Source: Beijerinckiaceae bacterium (GTDB lineage: Bacteria > Pseudomonadota > Alphaproteobacteria > Rhizobiales > Beijerinckiaceae). Taken from it: a stretch of DNA of 64,000 nt. Positions 3,068 through 14,959 of the stretch are shown piece by piece. Every line of letters begins with the position of its first letter. Positions within the stretch are counted from its first letter, which is position 1. Made by a program: the position numbers and the translations under genes. The DNA is taken from the NCBI GenBank assembly GCA_965246795.1, contig CBDFFN010000012.1, positions 30,742 through 94,741 of the forward strand, given 5' to 3'. The notes below the pieces were generated by a model. It did no database searches and was not told where the DNA came from. It saw only the letters and a program-made list of their open reading frames with translations.

Positions 3068-3144
3068 CGGGGTATGGCGCAGCCTGGTAGCGCGGTAGTT
3101 TTGGGTACTACAGGTCGCAGGTTCGAATCCTGCTGCCCCGACCA
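3068..3144 (+). tRNA. tRNA-Pro (anticodon TGG)
   Basis: Cloverleaf CGGGGTA..TACCCCG-A-CCA; anticodon loop TTTGGGT; GGTTCGAATCC T-arm; CCA encoded. Confidence 0.85.
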
Positions 3145-3488: not shown

Positions 3489-3565
3489 GACCCCGTAGCT
3501 CAGCTGGATAGAGCAGCCGCCTTCTAAGCGGCAGGTCGCAGGTTCGAGCCCTGCCGGGGTCGCCA
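3489..3565 (+). tRNA. tRNA-Arg (anticodon TCT)
   Basis: GACCCCG acceptor; GTAGCTCAGCTGGATAGAGC D-arm; anticodon loop CTTCTAA; GGTTCGAGCCC T-arm; CCA encoded. Confidence 0.85.
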
Positions 3566-5566: not shown

Positions 5567-7078
5567 GTGGCGATGAGGGCGGGCGCGCATCTTTCGAAGG
5601 GAACGCGCGTGCTGGCGGCAATCGCCTGCATTCTGCTCGGATTTTTCGCTTTCGCATCGCCTGCTTTCTCACAGGACGCTCGTCCCACCGCGGGCCCATC
5701 CGCACGCGCCCCGGCCAAAGCCGCAGGCCGCGGCCGTCTTGCGCTCGCCGAGCGCGCTTCGAGCGGCACAAGCCGCGGCACCTCGATGCTGGTCCGTTTT
5801 CGAAACGCGCCGTACCCCTACGACGGCGATATTCCCGCGACGGGAAAGCCCTTCTTCGATACGACCGATGCGAACGGACGACGCGGGCACACGTCGCCGC
5901 GCGGCGGCGTGAACTGGGAAACGCCGACCTATAGCGACGACCGCGTGCTGCTCTACGTGCCGCGCGGTTTCGATCCGTCGAAGCCGGCGGCGATCGTCGT
6001 CTTCTTCCACGGCAATCTCGCGACGCTCGAACGCGACGTGCGCGACCGGCAGGGCGTGCCGCGACAGCTCGAACAGTCGAAGCTGAATGCGATTCTCGTC
6101 GCCCCGCAATTTGCAGTGAACGTGAACGATTCCTCTTCGGGTAAATTCTTTCAGCCGGGCGCCTTCAACACTTTTCTGGCGGAAGCCGCGCCCGCCATCG
6201 CCGACGCCACGGGTGGCCAGATGTCTGCGGCGACGGCGGCCAGCCTGCCCGTGGTGCTCGTTGCATACAGCGGCGGTTATCAGGCTGCCGGTTTCACCCT
6301 GATGCATATGGGCGGCTCAAAGCGCATCGCCGGCGTCGTCCTGCTCGATGCGCTCTACGGCGAGGTCGAGAAATTCGCGGACTGGATCGTCGCGCGCCAC
6401 GACGGCGCATTCTTCCTAAGCGCCTATTCGCGCTCGTCCGCGGCGCAAAACGCGACGCTGAAGCGAATGATCGGGGAAGGGGGCGTGCGTAGCGCAGACG
6501 GACTTCCCAAAGCGCTCACGCCGGGGACCGTCGCCTTCGTGCCGGCGATCGACGCCGTGCACAACGATTTCGTCACGCGCGCCTGGACGGCCGACCCCTT
6601 GCGCGCGGCGCTTTCGCTCGTACGCCTGAAAGGCGACCGCGCGGTGCAGGAGACGGCTGCGCCGCCGGCGCAACCCGCACAGCGCGGAGCCGCACAGGCG
6701 CAACCGGCATCCGAGACGAATTCCGACGGTGCAGGCGGTCTCAGTTCCCTGAAAGGTCTCTTCGCCAATCGAGCCGCGCCACCTGCTGCGAGTACGCCGC
6801 CAGCGGCTGGAGCGAGCGGCGATGCCGTGATCCAACTTGGGGCTTTCCCCACGTCGAACGAGGCGGATGCACGCATTCGCGCCGTGCAGAAAAATTATCC
6901 GGAACTGGCCGAGCGGGAGTTTCGTACGGAGCCGACGGGCGACAAGAAGCCGATCTTCTATCGCGTGAGGATCGTCAATCTCACGCAAGACGACGCCGAT
7001 GTCGTCTGTCAGCGCGTCAACGCGAAAGAGGCTGGCAAGTGCTTTCGCGTGCGCGAGGCAAGGCCAGCTGCACGCTGA
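5567..7078 (+). CDS. Secreted alpha/beta-hydrolase-fold protein fused to a C-terminal SPOR domain
   Basis: Signal peptide; esterase-like core (AIVVFFHGN ... LVAYSGGYQAAG); Pro/Ala linker; C-terminal SPOR-like segment (VIQLGAF...YRVRIVNLTQDDADVVCQRVN). Confidence 0.65.
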   Translation: MAMRAGAHLSKGTRVLAAIACILLGFFAFASPAFSQDARPTAGPSARAPAKAAGRGRLALAERASSGTSRGTSMLVRFRNAPYPYDGDIPATGKPFFDTTDANGRRGHTSPRGGVNWETPTYSDDRVLLYVPRGFDPSKPAAIVVFFHGNLATLERDVRDRQGVPRQLEQSKLNAILVAPQFAVNVNDSSSGKFFQPGAFNTFLAEAAPAIADATGGQMSAATAASLPVVLVAYSGGYQAAGFTLMHMGGSKRIAGVVLLDALYGEVEKFADWIVARHDGAFFLSAYSRSSAAQNATLKRMIGEGGVRSADGLPKALTPGTVAFVPAIDAVHNDFVTRAWTADPLRAALSLVRLKGDRAVQETAAPPAQPAQRGAAQAQPASETNSDGAGGLSSLKGLFANRAAPPAASTPPAAGASGDAVIQLGAFPTSNEADARIRAVQKNYPELAEREFRTEPTGDKKPIFYRVRIVNLTQDDADVVCQRVNAKEAGKCFRVREARPAAR

Positions 7079-7082
7079 GCCG

Positions 7083-9077
7083 TCACCGCGACCGGCAGCA
7101 GGCGACAAACTTCGAATTCGCCCAGCCGGTCTCACCGTTCTGCAGGCGCACGTTCATCCAGTCACCGTCTTGGCCAAGCCGCGTCAGTAGCGTGCCCGGC
7201 CCCATGCGGGTCGACGACCACTTGCTCGAATAGCTCGGCGCATTGCGCAGCGCGAGCCAGTTGTCGCCGCTCGGATCGAGGCCCGTCACATAGTAAAAGT
7301 TTCCGCCCGACGACGCTGGCGGCGTGTAAGCGGCGGCCTTAGGTACCGATCCGCCGGTGCTGCGACAGCATGCGATGAATTTCGCGTTCGCCCAGCCGGT
7401 CTCTCCGCTCTGCGTGCGGACATTCATCCAGTCGCCCTGCTGTCCGAGGCGGGTGAGCAGCGTGCCCGGCCCCATGCGCGTCGCCGACCACGCGCTCGAA
7501 TAACTCGGCGCATTGCGCAGCGCGAGCCAGTTGTCGCCGTTCGGATCAAGACCAGTCACGTAGTAATACGAGCCTGCGCTTGGTGACGGCTGTTGCGGCG
7601 GCACGTATGGGGCCGGCGTGGGCGTCTGCGGCGTGTAGGACGCCTGCGCGGGCGAACTGCCTGCGCGGCAACAGGCAAGAAATTTCGAATTCGCCCAGCC
7701 AGTTTCGCCGTTCTGCGTGCGAACGTTCATCCACTCGCCTTGCTCGCCGAGCTTCGTCAGCAGCGTGCCCGGTCCCATCCGCGTCGCAGACCACGAACTC
7801 GAGTAGCTCGGCGCGTTGCGCAGCGCGAGCCAGTTGTCGCCGTTCGGATCGAGGCCGGTGACATAGTAGAAATTCGCGACTGCCGGCTCCACCCGCGCTT
7901 GCGCCGGCAGGGTGGCCGCGCCGGACATGTCCTTGGCGACCATCGCCACCTTCAATTGTTGGCACTTGTCGGCATAGGCGCTGTCGCCATAGGCGGTCGC
8001 CATCACCTCGCATTTTGCCACCTTGTCGCGCTCGCTCGGCGCGCGCTGGATCTCGTCCCATAGACCCTCGGCCTGTTTACGCTGGATGAGCGCAATGATG
8101 GTTTCGCGCTTGAGATGATTCGGAAACTCGCGCAGCACACGCTGATAACCTTCGATCGTGTCGACGCGCACCGCCTCGCCGAAGGCGACAAGCGGGTCGG
8201 GTGCGGGCGGGGCAGCTTCACGCACGTCCACCGGCTTATCCGCCGGCTTCTTTTCGATGACGACTGGCTGATCCGGCACGACGGCGGCGATACCGTCCAT
8301 GAAACTGAAGCCCTGCGTCAGACTTGTCGTTTCCCAAGGCTGCTGCGTCTTTGTCTGCTCGATGACGCGCACGCGAACTTTCCGGAACACGGTCTCGGCC
8401 TCGCCCGGCTGCGACATCTCCGATGCGAGCGCCTCGGCATAGGGGCTGTTGGTACCGTTGCCGTCCTGCGCGACGTCGCCGGGCTTCGTCGAAAAGGCGA
8501 TGAGAAAGCCCGTGCGCTGGTTCTCCAATCCTAGCCCACGGCCACCCGCGCTGCGCTGCGTTGCCGGTAGGGGATTGTCGCGGCATGCATCGAGTACGAC
8601 GATCGCGACTTTTGGCCGAGCGCGGTCGAGCGTCTCGAGGATCGATTCGGAAGAAACCGCGCGCAGTGGCAGATCGCGCTGAGATCGCAGCGTCGCATCG
8701 ACGGGCACAAGGTAGTTCTTGAGCTGGTCGTCCTGCATGCCGTGACCGGCATAGTAGAAAAGGGCCTGTGTCTCCGGACCGGCCGCCTTGATGGCGTCGG
8801 TGAAGTCCTGCACGGCGCCGACAAAACTTTCGCGGTTCGCGTTTTCGACGAGCGTGACCTTGAACTGCGCGGCTTCCAGCTTGCTCTTGATGAGCTGGCC
8901 ATCGTTGACCGGGTTCTTCAGCACCGGCAGCGTCGTATATTGCGAATTTGCGACGATCAGCGCGAGGCGCTCGGCGGCGAGAGCTGGCCCGAGGCTCGGG
9001 AGCGAAAAAGCCAAGGCGGCGAACGCAAGCCGCAGCCTGCTAGATGCCGTCGCCGACAAACAAAGATACGCTTTCAT
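7083..9077 (-). CDS. Secreted caspase-family (peptidase C14) protease with three C-terminal SH3b repeats
   Basis: Sec signal peptide; caspase His-Cys dyad context (YYAGHG ... VVLDACRDNP); three roughly 75-aa repeats (YYVTGLDPNGDNWLALRNAPSYSS..MGPGTLLT..WMNV..GETGWANSKF.ACCR) typical of bacterial SH3; ATG at 9075-9077. Confidence 0.8.
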   Translation of the reverse strand: MKAYLCLSATASSRLRLAFAALAFSLPSLGPALAAERLALIVANSQYTTLPVLKNPVNDGQLIKSKLEAAQFKVTLVENANRESFVGAVQDFTDAIKAAGPETQALFYYAGHGMQDDQLKNYLVPVDATLRSQRDLPLRAVSSESILETLDRARPKVAIVVLDACRDNPLPATQRSAGGRGLGLENQRTGFLIAFSTKPGDVAQDGNGTNSPYAEALASEMSQPGEAETVFRKVRVRVIEQTKTQQPWETTSLTQGFSFMDGIAAVVPDQPVVIEKKPADKPVDVREAAPPAPDPLVAFGEAVRVDTIEGYQRVLREFPNHLKRETIIALIQRKQAEGLWDEIQRAPSERDKVAKCEVMATAYGDSAYADKCQQLKVAMVAKDMSGAATLPAQARVEPAVANFYYVTGLDPNGDNWLALRNAPSYSSSWSATRMGPGTLLTKLGEQGEWMNVRTQNGETGWANSKFLACCRAGSSPAQASYTPQTPTPAPYVPPQQPSPSAGSYYYVTGLDPNGDNWLALRNAPSYSSAWSATRMGPGTLLTRLGQQGDWMNVRTQSGETGWANAKFIACCRSTGGSVPKAAAYTPPASSGGNFYYVTGLDPSGDNWLALRNAPSYSSKWSSTRMGPGTLLTRLGQDGDWMNVRLQNGETGWANSKFVACCRSR
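7086..7920. repeat. Three tandem, in-frame DNA repeats of about 280-300 bp encoding the SH3b triplet
   Basis: Near-identical stretches such as GCCCAGCCGGTCTC..CGTGCCCGGCCCCATGCG..CAGTTGTCGCCG recur at about 7105, 7385 and 7685. Confidence 0.6.
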
Positions 9078-9124
9078 CGACGACTGCCCCCAGACCTGAA
9101 AATATTCGGGACGCTCGGAGCGAG

Positions 9125-11773
9125 TCAATGCGACGCGAGTGGCGCTCGCACGGGTGCGGCGACGCCGTAGTAGGCCGGTAGGGCCAAGAGATAAGCGACG
9201 CCGCCGACGAACAGCACGTAGCTCAAACCGAAAGTCGAGCCGACGATCGGCACGAGCGACGTTGCGATGACGGAAAAACATCCGTTCACGCCCCAGGCCC
9301 AAACAAACAGGCTGTCCTTGCCAAGCCGTGACAGAGTCGACATCGCGACCGGCATTGGGAAGCCCATGAGGAAGGCCGGCGGAAAGATCAGCGCAAGGCA
9401 AAGCGCCAGACGCTGCCAGTAAGGCAAAGCACCGATTGCATCGAGAATCGTATCGAGCACCAGGCCGTAGCCCGCGAGCAGCGCGAAGATGGCGATGAAG
9501 ATCACAGGCATGACGCGCCCGGCGACCGGCATGATGCGCTCCGACACGAGACTGCCGATGCCGGAGAAAACAAGCATGCCGGTGATGAGCACCGCCGTGG
9601 AAACGGATGGGTTGCTCAAAGCCAGCATGAATTTCGGCACGAAGCCGACTTCTGCCGTCATGTAGCCAAGGCCGATGCCGGCGAAATATAGCAGCACGCG
9701 CAGCTTGCCCGGCGTATGCGAAAAGATCGCGCGCCAGCCGAAGCAGACGGGGATCGCGATCAACAGCAGCGCCGAGGTGCAGGCGAGAGCGAATGTCGCC
9801 CACAGCAGAAGATAGCCCCACTCGTCCTGCAGAATTTCGAGATGATCGAGGGAGCCGGGCAGGTCGGCGGGCCGCACATAGGCGGCGAAATACGGCCGGT
9901 CGTTGGTCAGCGCGCGCACGTCGAACACGTAATTGTTCGCAAGCGCCGGCCAGCGGCCACCGAGCAACGCGCTCCACGCTGCACGTGCGACCTTCACCGG
10001 CGGAAGCGCCTGCGCCTCGCCCTCGGGCGCGTCGGGCTTGTCGGCGGTGGGCGCGGCATCCGTGGCTTTCGCGAGCTCGTCCGGGACGTCGCGCGCTTCG
10101 AACTGCGCCTTGAGATCAGAGAGGACGCCACCGATGTCCTTGTCGGCATCGAGCACATTTCCCGGCGCGTAAATCTCGTCGAAGGACATGGCCTTCGTGT
10201 GCGCACGCAGGCGCTCGATATCTTCGGTTGTGAAGCCGCCGCGCTTGTAAAGCACCGTCGTCGTCGAAAGGTAGCTCGACGCGACGAAGAACGACTGGTC
10301 GCGCTTAGCGCCGCCGAGCGTGCGCGCCGCCTCCGCTATCGTCGCGTAGAGTTTCAAGATCGACTTCGGCGGCTCTTCCTTGTTCCACAAAGTGACCGAT
10401 AGGATACCGCCGTCGGCGAGCGCGCGCATGTACGCGGCCATCGCTTCGCGCGTGTAGGCGAATTTCTCGACGACCGCGAAGCCGCCCGGATTGGACAGGC
10501 CGGCGGAATCCGCAAGGCTGAGGTCGATGACGTCGTAGCGCTCGCTTGTGCTCTTGAGGAAGATGCGCCCGTCGTAGGGAATGACGCCAAGGCCCGGTCG
10601 CGAAAGGATATCGCCCGTGAAGCGGCGCAGGCCGGGATCCGACCTGAAGGCGTCAAGGACGGCAGGGTTGCTCTCCGCGACAGTCACCGCGCCGCCGCCG
10701 TACAACGCGACATTCGTCGAGAGACCGCCGCCGAACTGGACGACGAACGTCTTCGGCTTCGCCTTCAGAACATAGGGATAGAACATCGGCAGGAAGCGAT
10801 AGTAGTCCGCCTGTCCGCCGGTCAGCGTCTTGATGACGGCGCTCGGCCCTTCGCCGTCAACGTAGAGCCCGAGATACGCGTCCTTCGGAAAGTCCGCGAG
10901 ATTGAACGCCGCATTGTCCGAGAGCCCCGGTGCGAAATGCAGGTACGAGCTCGTGTAGACGTCGACCTGCCCGAACGGCGATGACGCGGTGTAAACGCGC
11001 GCCGCATCGGGGAACTTCTGAACGTAGGCGATGCCCTTGTAGTCGGACACTGCGAGCTTACTGAGCCCGAGCAGGTTCGGCAGCACGAGATAGGCTGCAA
11101 TGGAGATCGCCGCCGCAGCAAGCGTGGCGACGATGCCGCTGCGTTGGCCGACGGCGACGAACCACAGAATGCCACCGAGCGTCCAAATCAGGATCGGGAA
11201 TAGTAGAATGTCGGTTGGTGGAAAGACGAAAGCGGCGAGCATCGTCGCAAGCCCGCACACGCCCGAGCCGGTGAGATCGGCGAAATAGACGCGGCCGAAA
11301 ACCCGTTCGGCTTTGAGGAATACGATGCCGATGAAGAACGCGCCAGCAAGGAACGGCAGCAGATAAAGGAAGAAGTTACCCGCGAGCTTCCATCGCTGCG
11401 CCGAGTCCGAGATCAGGAAGATCGCGTTGAACGGGATGCGCTGCGCGGCGAGATGGCTGAGCGTGATCAGCGGCCCGATGAGCAGTAGCGAGAAAGCCGC
11501 AGCACTGCGCCAGTGGCGGGAGAACCAGCCCGTCGCGACGCACATGACCGCGCTCGCGAGCCCGAAGCCGAGCATTGCAAGGCTGAGCACGAAGGAGCCG
11601 AAATGCGCCCAGCTCCCGACGGAGAAGACGCGCATGATCCCGATCTGCAGGGCGATCAGCGCCCCGGCGACGAGCGCGACACCGAGATAGAGCGCAGGCG
11701 ACGCCGGCATTGCACGCGAGGCTGGCAGAGCAGCGTCGGGCACGGCGGCTCCCGCGCCGACCGAAGACGTCAC
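9125..11773 (-). CDS. Polytopic membrane protein fused to a spermidine/spermine synthase-like domain
   Basis: N- and C-terminal transmembrane helix bundles flank a soluble domain with a degenerate aminopropyltransferase-like Rossmann core (VVQFGGGLSTN ... YDVIDLSLADSAG); GTG start overlaps the stop of the upstream gene. Confidence 0.7.
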   Translation of the reverse strand: MTSSVGAGAAVPDAALPASRAMPASPALYLGVALVAGALIALQIGIMRVFSVGSWAHFGSFVLSLAMLGFGLASAVMCVATGWFSRHWRSAAAFSLLLIGPLITLSHLAAQRIPFNAIFLISDSAQRWKLAGNFFLYLLPFLAGAFFIGIVFLKAERVFGRVYFADLTGSGVCGLATMLAAFVFPPTDILLFPILIWTLGGILWFVAVGQRSGIVATLAAAAISIAAYLVLPNLLGLSKLAVSDYKGIAYVQKFPDAARVYTASSPFGQVDVYTSSYLHFAPGLSDNAAFNLADFPKDAYLGLYVDGEGPSAVIKTLTGGQADYYRFLPMFYPYVLKAKPKTFVVQFGGGLSTNVALYGGGAVTVAESNPAVLDAFRSDPGLRRFTGDILSRPGLGVIPYDGRIFLKSTSERYDVIDLSLADSAGLSNPGGFAVVEKFAYTREAMAAYMRALADGGILSVTLWNKEEPPKSILKLYATIAEAARTLGGAKRDQSFFVASSYLSTTTVLYKRGGFTTEDIERLRAHTKAMSFDEIYAPGNVLDADKDIGGVLSDLKAQFEARDVPDELAKATDAAPTADKPDAPEGEAQALPPVKVARAAWSALLGGRWPALANNYVFDVRALTNDRPYFAAYVRPADLPGSLDHLEILQDEWGYLLLWATFALACTSALLLIAIPVCFGWRAIFSHTPGKLRVLLYFAGIGLGYMTAEVGFVPKFMLALSNPSVSTAVLITGMLVFSGIGSLVSERIMPVAGRVMPVIFIAIFALLAGYGLVLDTILDAIGALPYWQRLALCLALIFPPAFLMGFPMPVAMSTLSRLGKDSLFVWAWGVNGCFSVIATSLVPIVGSTFGLSYVLFVGGVAYLLALPAYYGVAAPVRAPLASH

Positions 11774-12645
11774 TTGTTGTGCGTGCCGGCGATCTTGTCA
11801 CCATCCAACTTCGTGAAGGGGACGAAGGGGACGATCTTGCCGCTGAAAATATCGGAGCGCGCGACGCTGACGGCGCCGGCCGCATCCTGCGTCTTCGTCA
11901 CCTTCAGCACGTGCTGCGCGCCGGGTGGCCCGATCGGAATGACCATGATGCCGCCGGTCTTCAGCTGTTGCAGCAGTGGCGGCGGGATATGGTCGATGCC
12001 GCAGGTTACTATGATCTTGTCGAACGGCCCGGCGTCTTCCCAGCCGTAATAGCCATCGGCATTCTTCGAGTTGATCGACTTGAACTCGGTGTAACCCTTT
12101 GCGATCAGCGCGTCGTAGATGCCGCGCGTTCGCTCGGCCAGCGGCTTCACGATCTCGACCGTCCACACCTTGTCCGTGAGATTCGCGAGATAGGCGGACT
12201 GATAACCGGAGCCGGTGCCGATCTCGAGCACCTTGTCGCCGAGCTTCACGTCGATGACGCTGGTCATGCGGCCAACGAGATGTGGTCCGGAAATCGTCAC
12301 GCCGTAACCGATGTCGAGAAACGCATGGTCGTAGGCGCGGCCGAGATTCTGCGGCAGCACGAACTCTTCGCGTGGCGTCATGAGGAACGCGCGCTTGTTG
12401 CGGTCGTCCGACAGGTCTTTGTTTGCGAGCAGGACTTGGTAGCGATCCCAGCGCTCCGTCAGCATTTTCGGCGCTTCACCGCGCTGCGTCTGCATGTACG
12501 ACACGAAAGCATCGCGCGACGTCTTCGGCGGCCCGACATTGAAATCGTAGGCCTGCGTGATGGCGGCAAAGGCGCGATCGGAAAGTGCCGCCGTCGCGGC
12601 GAGAGACGCGAGAAGCGCGCGGCGATTCATGGGCAGGCGGTGCAT
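11770..12645 (-). CDS. pcm: Protein-L-isoaspartate O-methyltransferase (PCMT) family protein with a twin-arginine signal peptide
   Basis: SAM motif I VLEIGTGSGYQSAYLA; PCMT-like length and core; N-terminal MNRRALLASLAATAALS Tat motif; 4-nt overlap with the downstream gene. Confidence 0.8.
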   Translation of the reverse strand: MHRLPMNRRALLASLAATAALSDRAFAAITQAYDFNVGPPKTSRDAFVSYMQTQRGEAPKMLTERWDRYQVLLANKDLSDDRNKRAFLMTPREEFVLPQNLGRAYDHAFLDIGYGVTISGPHLVGRMTSVIDVKLGDKVLEIGTGSGYQSAYLANLTDKVWTVEIVKPLAERTRGIYDALIAKGYTEFKSINSKNADGYYGWEDAGPFDKIIVTCGIDHIPPPLLQQLKTGGIMVIPIGPPGAQHVLKVTKTQDAAGAVSVARSDIFSGKIVPFVPFTKLDGDKIAGTHNK

Positions 12646-12831: not shown

Positions 12832-13053
12832 ATGCGTGCACTCATTGCTGGAACTGCCTTGCTGATGTTGGCCGGCGTCGCCAATGCGAACCCCTGGGGA
12901 TGGGGTGGGGGACCGGGCTACGGTTTCGGCCCACCGCCGCCGCGGCCCGTGTTCGATCGCGGCTACGGGCATGGTTGGGGTGGTCCACCGCGCCGCTGCT
13001 GGTGGGTCGATGGCTTCTACGGACCGCGCAAGGTCTGCCGCGGCGGCTGGTAA
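12832..13053 (+). CDS. Small secreted Gly/Pro/Trp-rich protein
   Basis: GGAGGAGG RBS 6 nt upstream of ATG; signal peptide MRALIAGTALLMLAGVANA; GWGGGPGYGFGPPPP repeats. Confidence 0.45.
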   Translation: MRALIAGTALLMLAGVANANPWGWGGGPGYGFGPPPPRPVFDRGYGHGWGGPPRRCWWVDGFYGPRKVCRGGW

Positions 13054-13084: not shown

Positions 13085-14254
13085 TCACTCCGACAGAGCG
13101 ATGAAGTTGGTGCCTTCCCAGGCTTCGCGACCGCGTGCACCGTCATCCGAAAGGATCAGGGTTGCACCCGGCGTTAGCAGCGAGGCGAGAAGGGCAGCCG
13201 TTCCCGGCGCGAGATGCAGCCGCGCCAGCGCTTCCCACGACGTCGACGGTGCGAGCGGAGCGCTCGGCACGTCGCGCATACGTCGCGAGCGCGTCGCATT
13301 GTCGAGGATGCTCGCCTCGAGGATCGGTGCGTTGAGCGTGACCGCCGACCAATTCTTCGCGGCATCGGCGCCGGCCATGAACAGATGCGTGCCGAGCGGC
13401 CGCGCCGGATCGTCGATCGCGATCGGCACGGTCATCAGCGGTTTGCCGGCGCGGCGGACGAAAAGCTTTCCCGCTTTGCGGCTGACAAGGATGCTGACGG
13501 GCGATTGCGCGCCAAATGCTTTCTCTGCATTGGCCACGCCGCGCGGAGGCGCGGACACTTCAATGTCGTCCGGCAGTGCCGCCGCATCGGGATCGTGCTG
13601 CGTAGGCGGCGCAGCGAAGAGAGCCGGCAGACCCGCGGGCGCCGGCGACACGTCATCGCGCGCGATGATCACACGCGCACCGTTGCGGGTGTAGCGAAAG
13701 AGATCGGTGGCGAAGGCGCGGGGCAGGCGAATGCAGCCATGCGAAGCGGGTCGGCCGGTGACGTGACCTTCGTGCAGCGCCACGCCGGACCATGTGATGC
13801 GCTGCATGTAGGGCATCGGCGCGGCGCTGTAGAGATTGGACTCGTGGTAACGCTGCTTCTCGATGATGCTGAAAATCCCGTGCGGCGTCGGATGATCAGC
13901 GACGCCGGTCGAGACACTCGTCTGCGCGACCGGCATCCCGTCATCGAAAACGGTCAGCGTCTGATGGTTGGTCGAGACGACGAGTATCACCCGGCCGGTC
14001 GAGGTCGCCGGCAGCAACGACGGACGCGCACGGGCTTCGCGATCCTCACGCGCAAGGCGACGCACGCGATCTTCCACACTGGCGCGCGGGCGCCTGACAA
14101 CGGGTCGCTCGATCGTTGCCGTCGGCGTCGGGTCACGGAAAAGATTGAACGGCCATTGCGCCGCGGCCGGCGTCGGAGCGACGCTCGCCGAGGTGGCGAC
14201 GGTGAGGGCAAGCCAGGTCACACGTGCGTGGAAGTTGCGCGCGCTTCGGTTCAC
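13085..14254 (-). CDS. L,D-transpeptidase (YkuD domain) with an extra C-terminal domain
   Basis: Signal peptide; YkuD catalytic motif HPTPHG...SHGCIRLP. Confidence 0.75.
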   Translation of the reverse strand: MNRSARNFHARVTWLALTVATSASVAPTPAAAQWPFNLFRDPTPTATIERPVVRRPRASVEDRVRRLAREDREARARPSLLPATSTGRVILVVSTNHQTLTVFDDGMPVAQTSVSTGVADHPTPHGIFSIIEKQRYHESNLYSAAPMPYMQRITWSGVALHEGHVTGRPASHGCIRLPRAFATDLFRYTRNGARVIIARDDVSPAPAGLPALFAAPPTQHDPDAAALPDDIEVSAPPRGVANAEKAFGAQSPVSILVSRKAGKLFVRRAGKPLMTVPIAIDDPARPLGTHLFMAGADAAKNWSAVTLNAPILEASILDNATRSRRMRDVPSAPLAPSTSWEALARLHLAPGTAALLASLLTPGATLILSDDGARGREAWEGTNFIALSE

Positions 14255-14882: not shown

Positions 14883-14959
14883 TGGCGCGCCTCGCAGGAC
14901 TCGAACCTGCAACCTTCGGGTTCGAAGCCCGACACTCTATCCGATTGAGCTAGAGGCGC
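14883..14959 (-). tRNA. tRNA-Arg, anticodon read as TCG
   Basis: Reverse complement gives GCGCCTC-TA-GCTCAATCGGATAGAGT-G-TCGGG-CTTCGAA-CCCGA-AGGTT-GCAGGTTCGAGTCCTGC-GAGGCGC-G-CCA; Arg-like D-loop with A20. Confidence 0.8.

Follow-up and report, generated by a model that had tools for sequence, protein, structure and literature searches.

A widespread three-gene, predicted extracytoplasmic module of Proteobacteria, combining a PIMT-type methyltransferase, a transporter with a spermidine-synthase-fold domain and a putative hydrolase, is rearranged in a Beijerinckiaceae genome

We analysed a stretch of 64,000 nucleotides (nt) from contig CBDFFN010000012.1 of a Beijerinckiaceae bacterium (the window; all positions below are positions within it), and studied about 11 kb of it closely. 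A preliminary description of this DNA had proposed that three minus-strand genes, encoding a PCMT-like methyltransferase, a membrane protein with a spermidine-synthase-like domain and a caspase with SH3b repeats, make up one periplasmic protein-processing operon. We find instead that the window holds a copy, rearranged in this lineage, of an extracytoplasmic module of three genes that is widely conserved, and in which the third partner of the methyltransferase and the membrane protein is a hydrolase. The genes concerned, with their sizes in amino acids (aa), are as follows.

11770-12645, minus strand: gene 1, PCMT, 291 aa
12565-12645, minus strand: twin-arginine signal peptide of PCMT, predicted from sequence, residues 1-27, MHRLPMNRRALLASLAATAALSDRAFA, with A following the cleavage site
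9125-11773, minus strand: gene 2, membrane protein of 882 aa, modelled as a major facilitator superfamily (MFS) transporter with 14 transmembrane (TM) helices, whose TM7-TM8 loop houses a SpeE-fold domain
5567-7078, plus strand: putative alpha/beta hydrolase with a C-terminal SPOR domain, predicted to be secreted; the homologue of gene 3 of the module, inverted here
7083-9077, minus strand: caspase (Peptidase_C14) with three SH3b repeats, 664 aa, predicted to be Sec-secreted (domains from Pfam)
13085-14254, minus strand: L,D-transpeptidase (YkuD, E=6e-22, Pfam)

The list of open reading frames (ORFs) and the Pfam matches confirm the coordinates, gene spacing and domain content given in the preliminary description, and the record of the source contig carries the same gene products, of 291, 872, 664 and 501 aa. 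The stop codon of the PCMT gene and the GTG start of the membrane-protein gene overlap by 4 nt (GTGA, 11770-11773), and a gap of 47 nt (9078-9124) separates the membrane-protein gene from the ATG of the caspase gene. In the public annotation, the membrane protein is 872 aa long and begins 10 codons downstream of the 882-aa version, so the overlap with the PCMT gene hinges on the choice of start.

We searched a profile of the 882-aa protein against the GTDB species genomes, which yielded 396 loci, and took the best 80 with 10-kb flanks. Neighbours were counted by tblastn with the window proteins in these 80 loci, wherever the flank sufficed. A PCMT homologue lies upstream of the membrane gene, on the same strand, in 68 of 73 loci, which bears out the earlier proposal that these two genes are tightly linked. 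Downstream, also on the same strand, a homologue of the N-terminal ~300 aa of the 5567-7078 product is found in 74 of 75 loci, and the array of PCMT, membrane protein and hydrolase is complete in 65 of the 69 loci that have both flanks. The best 80 loci span the Hyphomicrobiales, Reyranella and its relatives, Prosthecomicrobium, and Gammaproteobacteria (Rhodanobacteraceae, Ahniellaceae and Pseudolysobacter). The carriers found by the profile search include strains that can be cultured, namely Reyranella massiliensis 521, Reyranella soli NBRC 108950 and Prosthecomicrobium hirschii 16. The genes flanking the trio vary by lineage, and stop/start overlaps are seen again in several of the loci. Two short hydrolases, chosen from the hydrolase side, were likewise found within trios. 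Based on the neighbour counts, the conserved unit consists of PCMT, membrane protein and hydrolase, and these are probably co-translated. The window copy departs from this arrangement: its hydrolase gene, which has a SPOR fusion, points the other way, and the caspase gene sits between the hydrolase and membrane genes. The hydrolase-SPOR gene had previously been taken as a mere neighbour; its near-constant position in other genomes, together with a natural fusion protein described below, makes it the third partner. A possible fourth conserved gene, a downstream HD-like ORF, was rejected: it is confined to Reyranella-type loci and therefore reflects local synteny.

Several loci depart from the canonical arrangement. 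Locus L018 (9944-12616), from an Alphaproteobacteria metagenome-assembled genome (MAG), has an 890-aa gene for an MFS-SpeE-like protein without trio partners, flanked, as read from the translations, by a copper-ATPase-like ORF and an ORF for a large polytopic membrane protein. The hydrolase is present and PCMT is not adjacent in loci L001, L004, L006 and L008. Locus L089 (1835-4465) encodes a 462-aa hydrolase homologue followed on the same strand by a PCMT with a Tat signal, with no MFS gene between them; this contig is rich in short gene fragments, and the arrangement may be an assembly or frameshift artefact. Finally, on the Beijerinckiaceae-type contig L087 (4378-7000), two separate gene calls of 613 and 237 aa split the MFS-SpeE-like gene, possibly owing to a frameshift, a pseudogene or a sequencing error.

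Gene 1 encodes a PIMT/PCMT-type carboxyl methyltransferase that is predicted to be exported by twin-arginine translocation (the Tat pathway). Its product matches PF01135 with E=6e-41 (141 bits, against a gathering cut-off of 20.3), and the mature protein aligns end to end with the solved PIMTs 4l7v, 4o29 and 3lbf (E~1e-34 to 1e-31). It keeps the TIS-x-P substrate motif as well as LEIGTGSGY, PFD-x-IIVT and GG-x-MVIP, and motifs I, II and III for binding S-adenosylmethionine (SAM) are present. Equivalog-level identity with canonical Pcm is not reached (166 versus 188 bits for NF001453; 136 versus 159 for TIGR00080). The Tat motif of the window protein reads MNRRALL...AFA, with cleavage before the next A and a basic residue in the c-region ahead of the cleavage site. 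Essentially all 69 PCMT homologues adjacent to a membrane gene have (K/Q/N)RR(T/S)F, typically KRRTF, followed by a hydrophobic stretch and AxA, and this conservation upholds the Tat signal noted in the preliminary description. One homologue carries a precomputed match to PF10518 (TAT_signal), which is flagged as faint. The Tat call rests on the RR motif, the moderately hydrophobic h-region and the AxA cleavage site, and on their conservation in orthologues.

PIMT-like enzymes also occur among the families acting on ribosomally synthesised and post-translationally modified peptides. This identity was ruled out for gene 1: scores are far under the cut-offs of the graspetide family TIGR04188 (101 versus 380 bits) and the FxLD family TIGR04364 (97 versus 320), and no ATP-grasp or lanthipeptide partner genes occur in the window or in those loci whose neighbouring genes have Pfam annotation; no search for precursor peptides was made.

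The 882-aa product of gene 2 has neither a Pfam match nor an NCBIfam MFS match. Hydropathy and an AF2 model (120-sequence alignment; pLDDT 84, pTM 0.87) indicate seven TM helices, a domain of 410 residues and seven further TM helices, and the MFS fold, with its two six-helix lobes, is recognised in the model. As modelled, then, the protein is a 14-TM MFS protein in which the two additional helices, TM7 and TM8, are joined by a loop that contains the SpeE-fold domain. Its parts, all encoded on the minus strand, are as follows.

11066-11698, minus strand: MFS N-lobe (TM1-6) and extra TM7, residues 26-236, from model helices, hydropathy and the MFS fold
9830-11056, minus strand: spermidine-synthase-fold domain, predicted to be periplasmic, residues 240-648, from Foldseek, a profile match and the bias in lysine plus arginine (K+R)
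9158-9829, minus strand: extra TM8 and MFS C-lobe (TM9-14), residues 649-872, from the model and the MFS fold; holds the invariant membrane-embedded residues E708 and N830

The two transmembrane bundles that had been described around the domain are thus present, with seven helices each; that together they form a single MFS transporter had been missed. The two TM halves show no mutual similarity (hhalign probability 0.1), and an internal duplication was rejected on that ground.

Foldseek matches the soluble domain to 1xj5, 1inl, 1uir and 3o4f (E 5e-6 to 2e-4; TM-score, normalised to the target, 0.5-0.57) at 15-19% identity, and the SpeE fold is present with its N-terminal beta domain and Rossmann core. 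A profile match to 1uir has E=0.0024. The sole NCBIfam match of the whole protein is to the aminopropyltransferase model PRK03612 (E=0.009, residues 361-482) at 14.4 bits against a cut-off of 472, and the thresholds of the SpeE families PF01564, TIGR00417, PRK00811 and PRK03612 are not reached. In the window subfamily, the signatures for decarboxylated SAM (dcSAM) and polyamines (the acidic residue of GGGDGG, DE..YHE and D-x-x-D-P) were not found; the subfamily has GGG(I/L)ST and AYYRF, and only D422 aligns with the D-P aspartate. Conserved positions were read over 92 family members, whose median identity to the window protein is 29%. Near-invariant in the soluble domain are K246, G283, D306, G348/G350, E367, N369, R403, D414, E436, W463, P468, D624 and P627, and D/E at position 401 is also conserved family-wide. 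Class I SAM-dependent enzymes of this fold usually contact the adenosyl cofactor through the positions seen here as the Gly loop, the Glu following strand 2 and the D/E preceding R403. In the membrane part, E708 and N830 are invariant among the 92 members, and these membrane-embedded residues would fit a proton-coupled carrier of a cationic substrate.

The SpeE-fold loop is predicted to lie outside the cytoplasm because of three lines of evidence, each itself a prediction. Over 120 sequences, the short loops on the N-terminal side hold 16.9 K+R, versus 2.1 on the opposite side. MFS proteins have both termini in the cytoplasm. Lastly, in P0243 (1162 aa), a natural single-chain fusion of an MFS-SpeE-like protein and a hydrolase domain, one extra TM helix stands between the two and puts the hydrolase on the side opposite to the MFS C-terminus; stand-alone hydrolases bear signal peptides. 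A periplasmic location of the SpeE-like domain, which lacks the canonical dcSAM motifs, is therefore supported by the topology check, and the placing of all three gene products outside the cytoplasm in the preliminary description likewise holds as a prediction. At locus L001, the membrane gene and the hydrolase gene can also be read as a single ORF, with the signal-like segment of the hydrolase between them.

The gene 2 family comprises 9,297 clusters at 50% identity with E<=1e-3, of which 2,590 have E<=1e-30, and most members are about 800 aa long and share the same architecture. Within it, a large branch of ~800-aa proteins (the P0284 group, one member of which is named from Candidatus Poribacteria) has no PCMT or hydrolase nearby in the two loci examined (L084, 8001-10481, and L085, 8001-10472). 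Many members of this branch, which is not covered by a curated family model, have GGGxD in the Gly loop and a Glu in TM1. Co-variation between acidic residues in TM1 and in the Gly loop was considered as a hint of a ligand shared by the carrier and the domain; it is weak (43/21/11/15, odds ratio ~2.8, uncorrected for phylogeny), and we do not rely on it.

The third member of the module is predicted, from its conserved Ser, Asp and His, to be a secreted hydrolase. The 5567-7078 product is 44-61% identical to the proteins encoded directly downstream of the membrane gene at 74 of 75 loci. Its hydrolase domain spans residues ~70-355 and contains HGN, AYS235GGY, D261 and H332, all of which are invariant or nearly so across a family of ~310-340 aa proteins with N-terminal signal-like sequences; AYS235GG would be the nucleophile elbow (G/A-x-S-x-G). 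NCBI names relatives 'alpha/beta hydrolase'. Pfam gave no family other than SPOR, and a profile of the hydrolase had no significant match in the PDB, where the lowest E was 0.26 and a feruloyl esterase came up at an insignificant E of 0.78. The SPOR match of the window protein (residues 417-495, E=2.9e-4) is borderline, at 21.5 bits against a gathering cut-off of 21. SPOR matches occur in 3 of 26 hydrolase family members (best E 6e-6), and in the hydrolase tree, which is poorly resolved, no fewer than three branches gave rise to such fusions.

The caspase gene of the window is a lineage-specific neighbour that lies outside the core trio. Its product has a Peptidase_C14 domain (E=4.9e-36) and three SH3_3 stretches in Pfam, and the motifs of the His-Cys dyad, YYAGHG and LDACRDNP, are present, with GHG and DACR kept in orthologues. 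The preliminary description counted this protein as a member of the unit and cited the nearby L,D-transpeptidase as supporting context. Neither holds: tblastn finds no caspase and no L,D-transpeptidase anywhere in the 80 related loci (0/80 each), and a metagenome scan with an alignment of the caspase returned nine loci, of which 0/9 carry PCMT, the membrane gene or the hydrolase. On these counts we rejected both as parts of the conserved unit, so that of the three genes expected to be co-conserved, the pair of PCMT and membrane protein stands and the caspase does not. Orthologues of the caspase that share its linker and SH3b repeats do adjoin SPOR-bearing hydrolase paralogues in two other contigs, in tandem in L082 (10001-13674), which belongs to the same MAG as L012, the holder of a canonical trio, and convergently in L088 (3252-5942), as in the window (5567-9077). 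The adjacency in three contigs hints that these two peptidoglycan-tethered hydrolases form a conserved pair of their own, a second and smaller unit, and the caspase is perhaps a partner of the SPOR-hydrolase variant. It may also have its own promoter, given the following match.

9099-9128, minus strand: sigma-70-like match, located upstream of the caspase gene within the 47-nt gap: TTGACT-N16-AATATT or N18-TATTTT; a match to consensus only

Two such matches occur in 9.5 kb, both in this gap, where 1.2 would be expected, which makes the signal weak. No terminator-like site was seen in the gap. The SH3b repeats (7083-7890) are ~74% identical to one another at the protein level; each ends in CCR, and the Cys pair is kept in orthologues.

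Between the PCMT and L,D-transpeptidase genes lies a small plus-strand ORF (12832-13053), which encodes a signal peptide and then a 55-residue tail rich in Gly, Pro and Trp with two Cys (MRALIAGTALLMLAGVANA-NPWGWGGGPGYGFGPPPP...); this could be a genuine gene or a spurious ORF. Genes for tRNA-Pro(tgg) (3068-3144) and tRNA-Arg(tct) (3489-3565) lie upstream of the ~11-kb stretch, and one for tRNA-Arg(tcg) (14883-14959) lies downstream. The G+C content of the stretch (0.60-0.67) is the same as that of its surroundings, and there is therefore no sign of an island at the studied genes.

The feature of interest is thus a widespread, uncharacterised and predictedly periplasmic module of a PIMT, an MFS protein with a SpeE-fold domain and a hydrolase, the window copy of which is rearranged and has an unrelated caspase gene inserted. 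As the best explanation of its role we tentatively propose, as something possible rather than probable, a periplasmic module for SAM-dependent carboxyl methylation or isoaspartyl repair, in which the MFS fusion gives access to SAM and the hydrolase is an esterase. We base this proposal on the conservation of the trio, the P0243 fusion, the predicted topology, the conserved RR-x-F and PIMT motifs, the cofactor site of the SpeE fold, and E708 and N830. The module would carry out SAM-dependent carboxyl methylation in the periplasm, the likeliest targets being isoaspartyl (or similar free alpha-carboxyl) sites on long-lived envelope proteins. The PIMT would fold in the cytoplasm, possibly already loaded with SAM, before export by Tat. 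The MFS part would carry a cationic adenosyl compound over the inner membrane, moving SAM out and/or S-adenosylhomocysteine or methylthioadenosine back, and the periplasmic SpeE-fold domain could bind the adenosyl compound at the exit, giving the periplasm a cofactor that it otherwise lacks. The hydrolase could be a matching esterase or imidase that targets either the damaged substrate or the product of methylation. In the source genome, the hydrolase has gained SPOR, is inverted and is paired with the caspase-SH3b protease, which lies outside the core. The more general statement, that in many Proteobacteria an MFS carrier with a periplasmic SpeE-fold dock supplies a Tat-exported isoaspartyl methyltransferase, which together with the hydrolase repairs or reversibly methylates aged envelope proteins, we consider unlikely as it stands. 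If it were true, the large stand-alone branch of fusions (thousands of clusters) would be periplasmic (dc)SAM-dependent transferases.

Other readings of the same genes place the weight elsewhere. The SpeE-fold domain could itself be the main enzyme and transfer an alkyl group (aminopropyl, methyl or aminocarboxypropyl) to peptidoglycan, another envelope polymer or a polyamine; its own MFS exporter would feed it dcSAM, SAM or a polyamine, PCMT would methylate a free alpha-carboxyl, such as that of the isoAsp-like gamma-linked D-Glu of the stem peptide, and the hydrolase would remove or process the modification. The associations with SPOR and SH3b and the existence of the stand-alone branch favour such a role in envelope modification, which we regard as possible while leaning against it: fusions to SPOR are in the minority, several of them being found outside trios, PCMT retains the full motif set typical of PIMTs that recognise protein isoAsp, the SpeE signatures GGGDGG and DE..YHE are lost in the window subfamily, and peptidoglycan-synthesis genes are not conserved nearby. 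It is rather improbable that we are looking at conserved synteny only, that is, three independent envelope proteins that travel together and share no pathway. Gene 2 does occur alone in some genomes, as this would allow, but order and strand are kept over two proteobacterial classes at ~60% protein identity while the flanks are all different, and both the stop/start overlaps and the natural fusion of genes 2 and 3 speak for a closer relationship.

The operon originally proposed, in which PCMT, the SpeE-like membrane protein and the caspase-SH3b protein process proteins together in the periplasm, draws on their common strand, on the short gap and its lack of a terminator-like site, and on the prediction that the caspase is secreted and binds peptidoglycan. 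Orthologues of the caspase are moreover associated with SPOR-bearing hydrolase paralogues in the two contigs named above, so a lineage-specific, add-on role is possible. Since the caspase is missing from every related locus and the trio genes from every caspase-related metagenome locus, and since there is a promoter-like site in the gap, we consider this operon very improbable. An ordinary membrane-anchored spermidine synthase working in the cytoplasm is more improbable still as an account of gene 2. JGI names such as 'spermidine synthase' and 'predicted membrane-bound spermidine synthase', the weak PRK03612/SpeE matches and the SpeE fold point that way, but the scores are far under the family cut-offs (14 versus 472 bits), the predicted topology puts the domain outside, and GGGDGG and DE..YHE are not kept. 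An anti-phage defence system was also considered and rejected, as PADLOC gave generic methyltransferase and caspase matches only and no defence-specific model.

The prevailing view is that the periplasm contains neither ATP nor SAM, and that enzymes which depend on SAM should therefore not be expected in it. Here, an enzyme of genuine PIMT type has a conserved Tat signal and is tied to a transporter that appears to show an adenosyl-cofactor fold on its outer face. This raises the question of whether isoaspartyl repair or carboxyl methylation takes place outside the cytoplasm, and how the cofactor is supplied. Bacteria that carry the module live in soil and freshwater and grow slowly, and their long-lived envelope proteins would gain from repair. 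Because the gene 2 family is very large and neither Pfam nor NCBIfam has a dedicated model for it, any function found for it would annotate many genes.

In the searchable literature, we found no description of the trio, of a periplasmic or Tat-exported PIMT, of periplasmic SAM, or of membrane- or MFS-fused spermidine synthases, in agreement with the earlier statement that the system had not been described. A paper on the longevity PIMT of R. palustris, RPA2580, reports that this protein lacks substrate-binding residues. RPA2580 was rejected as a relative of the trio, to which nothing ties it.

Cytoplasmic PIMTs (3LBF of E. coli, 4L7V of V. cholerae) align over their full length with the window PCMT (E~1e-34) and share all of its SAM-binding and substrate motifs. 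The window protein differs in its conserved Tat signal and N-terminal extension of ~45 aa, in its sub-equivalog NCBIfam scores, and in being linked to a membrane protein and a hydrolase, whereas the E. coli PIMT gene lies in a surE/nlpD context. It is predicted to act in the periplasm, where we know of no SAM pool. Compared with SpeE (PF01564; 1INL, 1UIR, 3O4F), the gene 2 domain is only 15-19% identical, lacks the dcSAM-specific Asp of GGGDGG as well as DE..YHE, and is inserted in a transporter loop that is predicted to be periplasmic. Membrane-fused SpeE homologues of the PRK03612 type, named 'fused MFS/spermidine synthase' at NCBI, resemble gene 2 in combining a membrane domain with a SpeE-like domain, but in gene 2 that domain lies between two MFS lobes (7 + 7 TM) and not at the C-terminus; no characterised member of this type was found in the searchable literature. 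Both the 14-TM MFS transporters of the DHA2 type (NorC, 7d5p; EfpA, 9bii) and the DHA1/SLC18 amine carriers (VMAT2, 9kqa) differ from gene 2, which has no MFS Pfam match and whose two extra helices are linked by a loop with a 410-aa enzyme-like domain. Like the bacterial caspase homologues (Peptidase_C14) that have cell-wall-binding repeats, the window caspase combines a C14 domain and its His/Cys motifs with SH3b repeats, three in number. It has no linkage to the trio in other genomes.

CheR/CheB and LCMT-1/PME-1 are pairs of a carboxyl methyltransferase and a methylesterase, and PME-1 is an alpha/beta hydrolase. The trio has in common with them the linkage of a carboxyl methyltransferase gene to a serine-hydrolase gene, although the trio hydrolase has no sequence relationship to CheB or PME-1 and belongs to no Pfam family. 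In MsrPQ, which repairs methionine sulfoxide in the periplasm, a Tat-exported enzyme works with an inner-membrane partner that brings electrons from the cytoplasm. The proteins and the chemistry are unrelated to those of the trio, and the likeness is one of analogy only: the resource brought across the membrane is electrons in MsrPQ and possibly SAM in the module described here.

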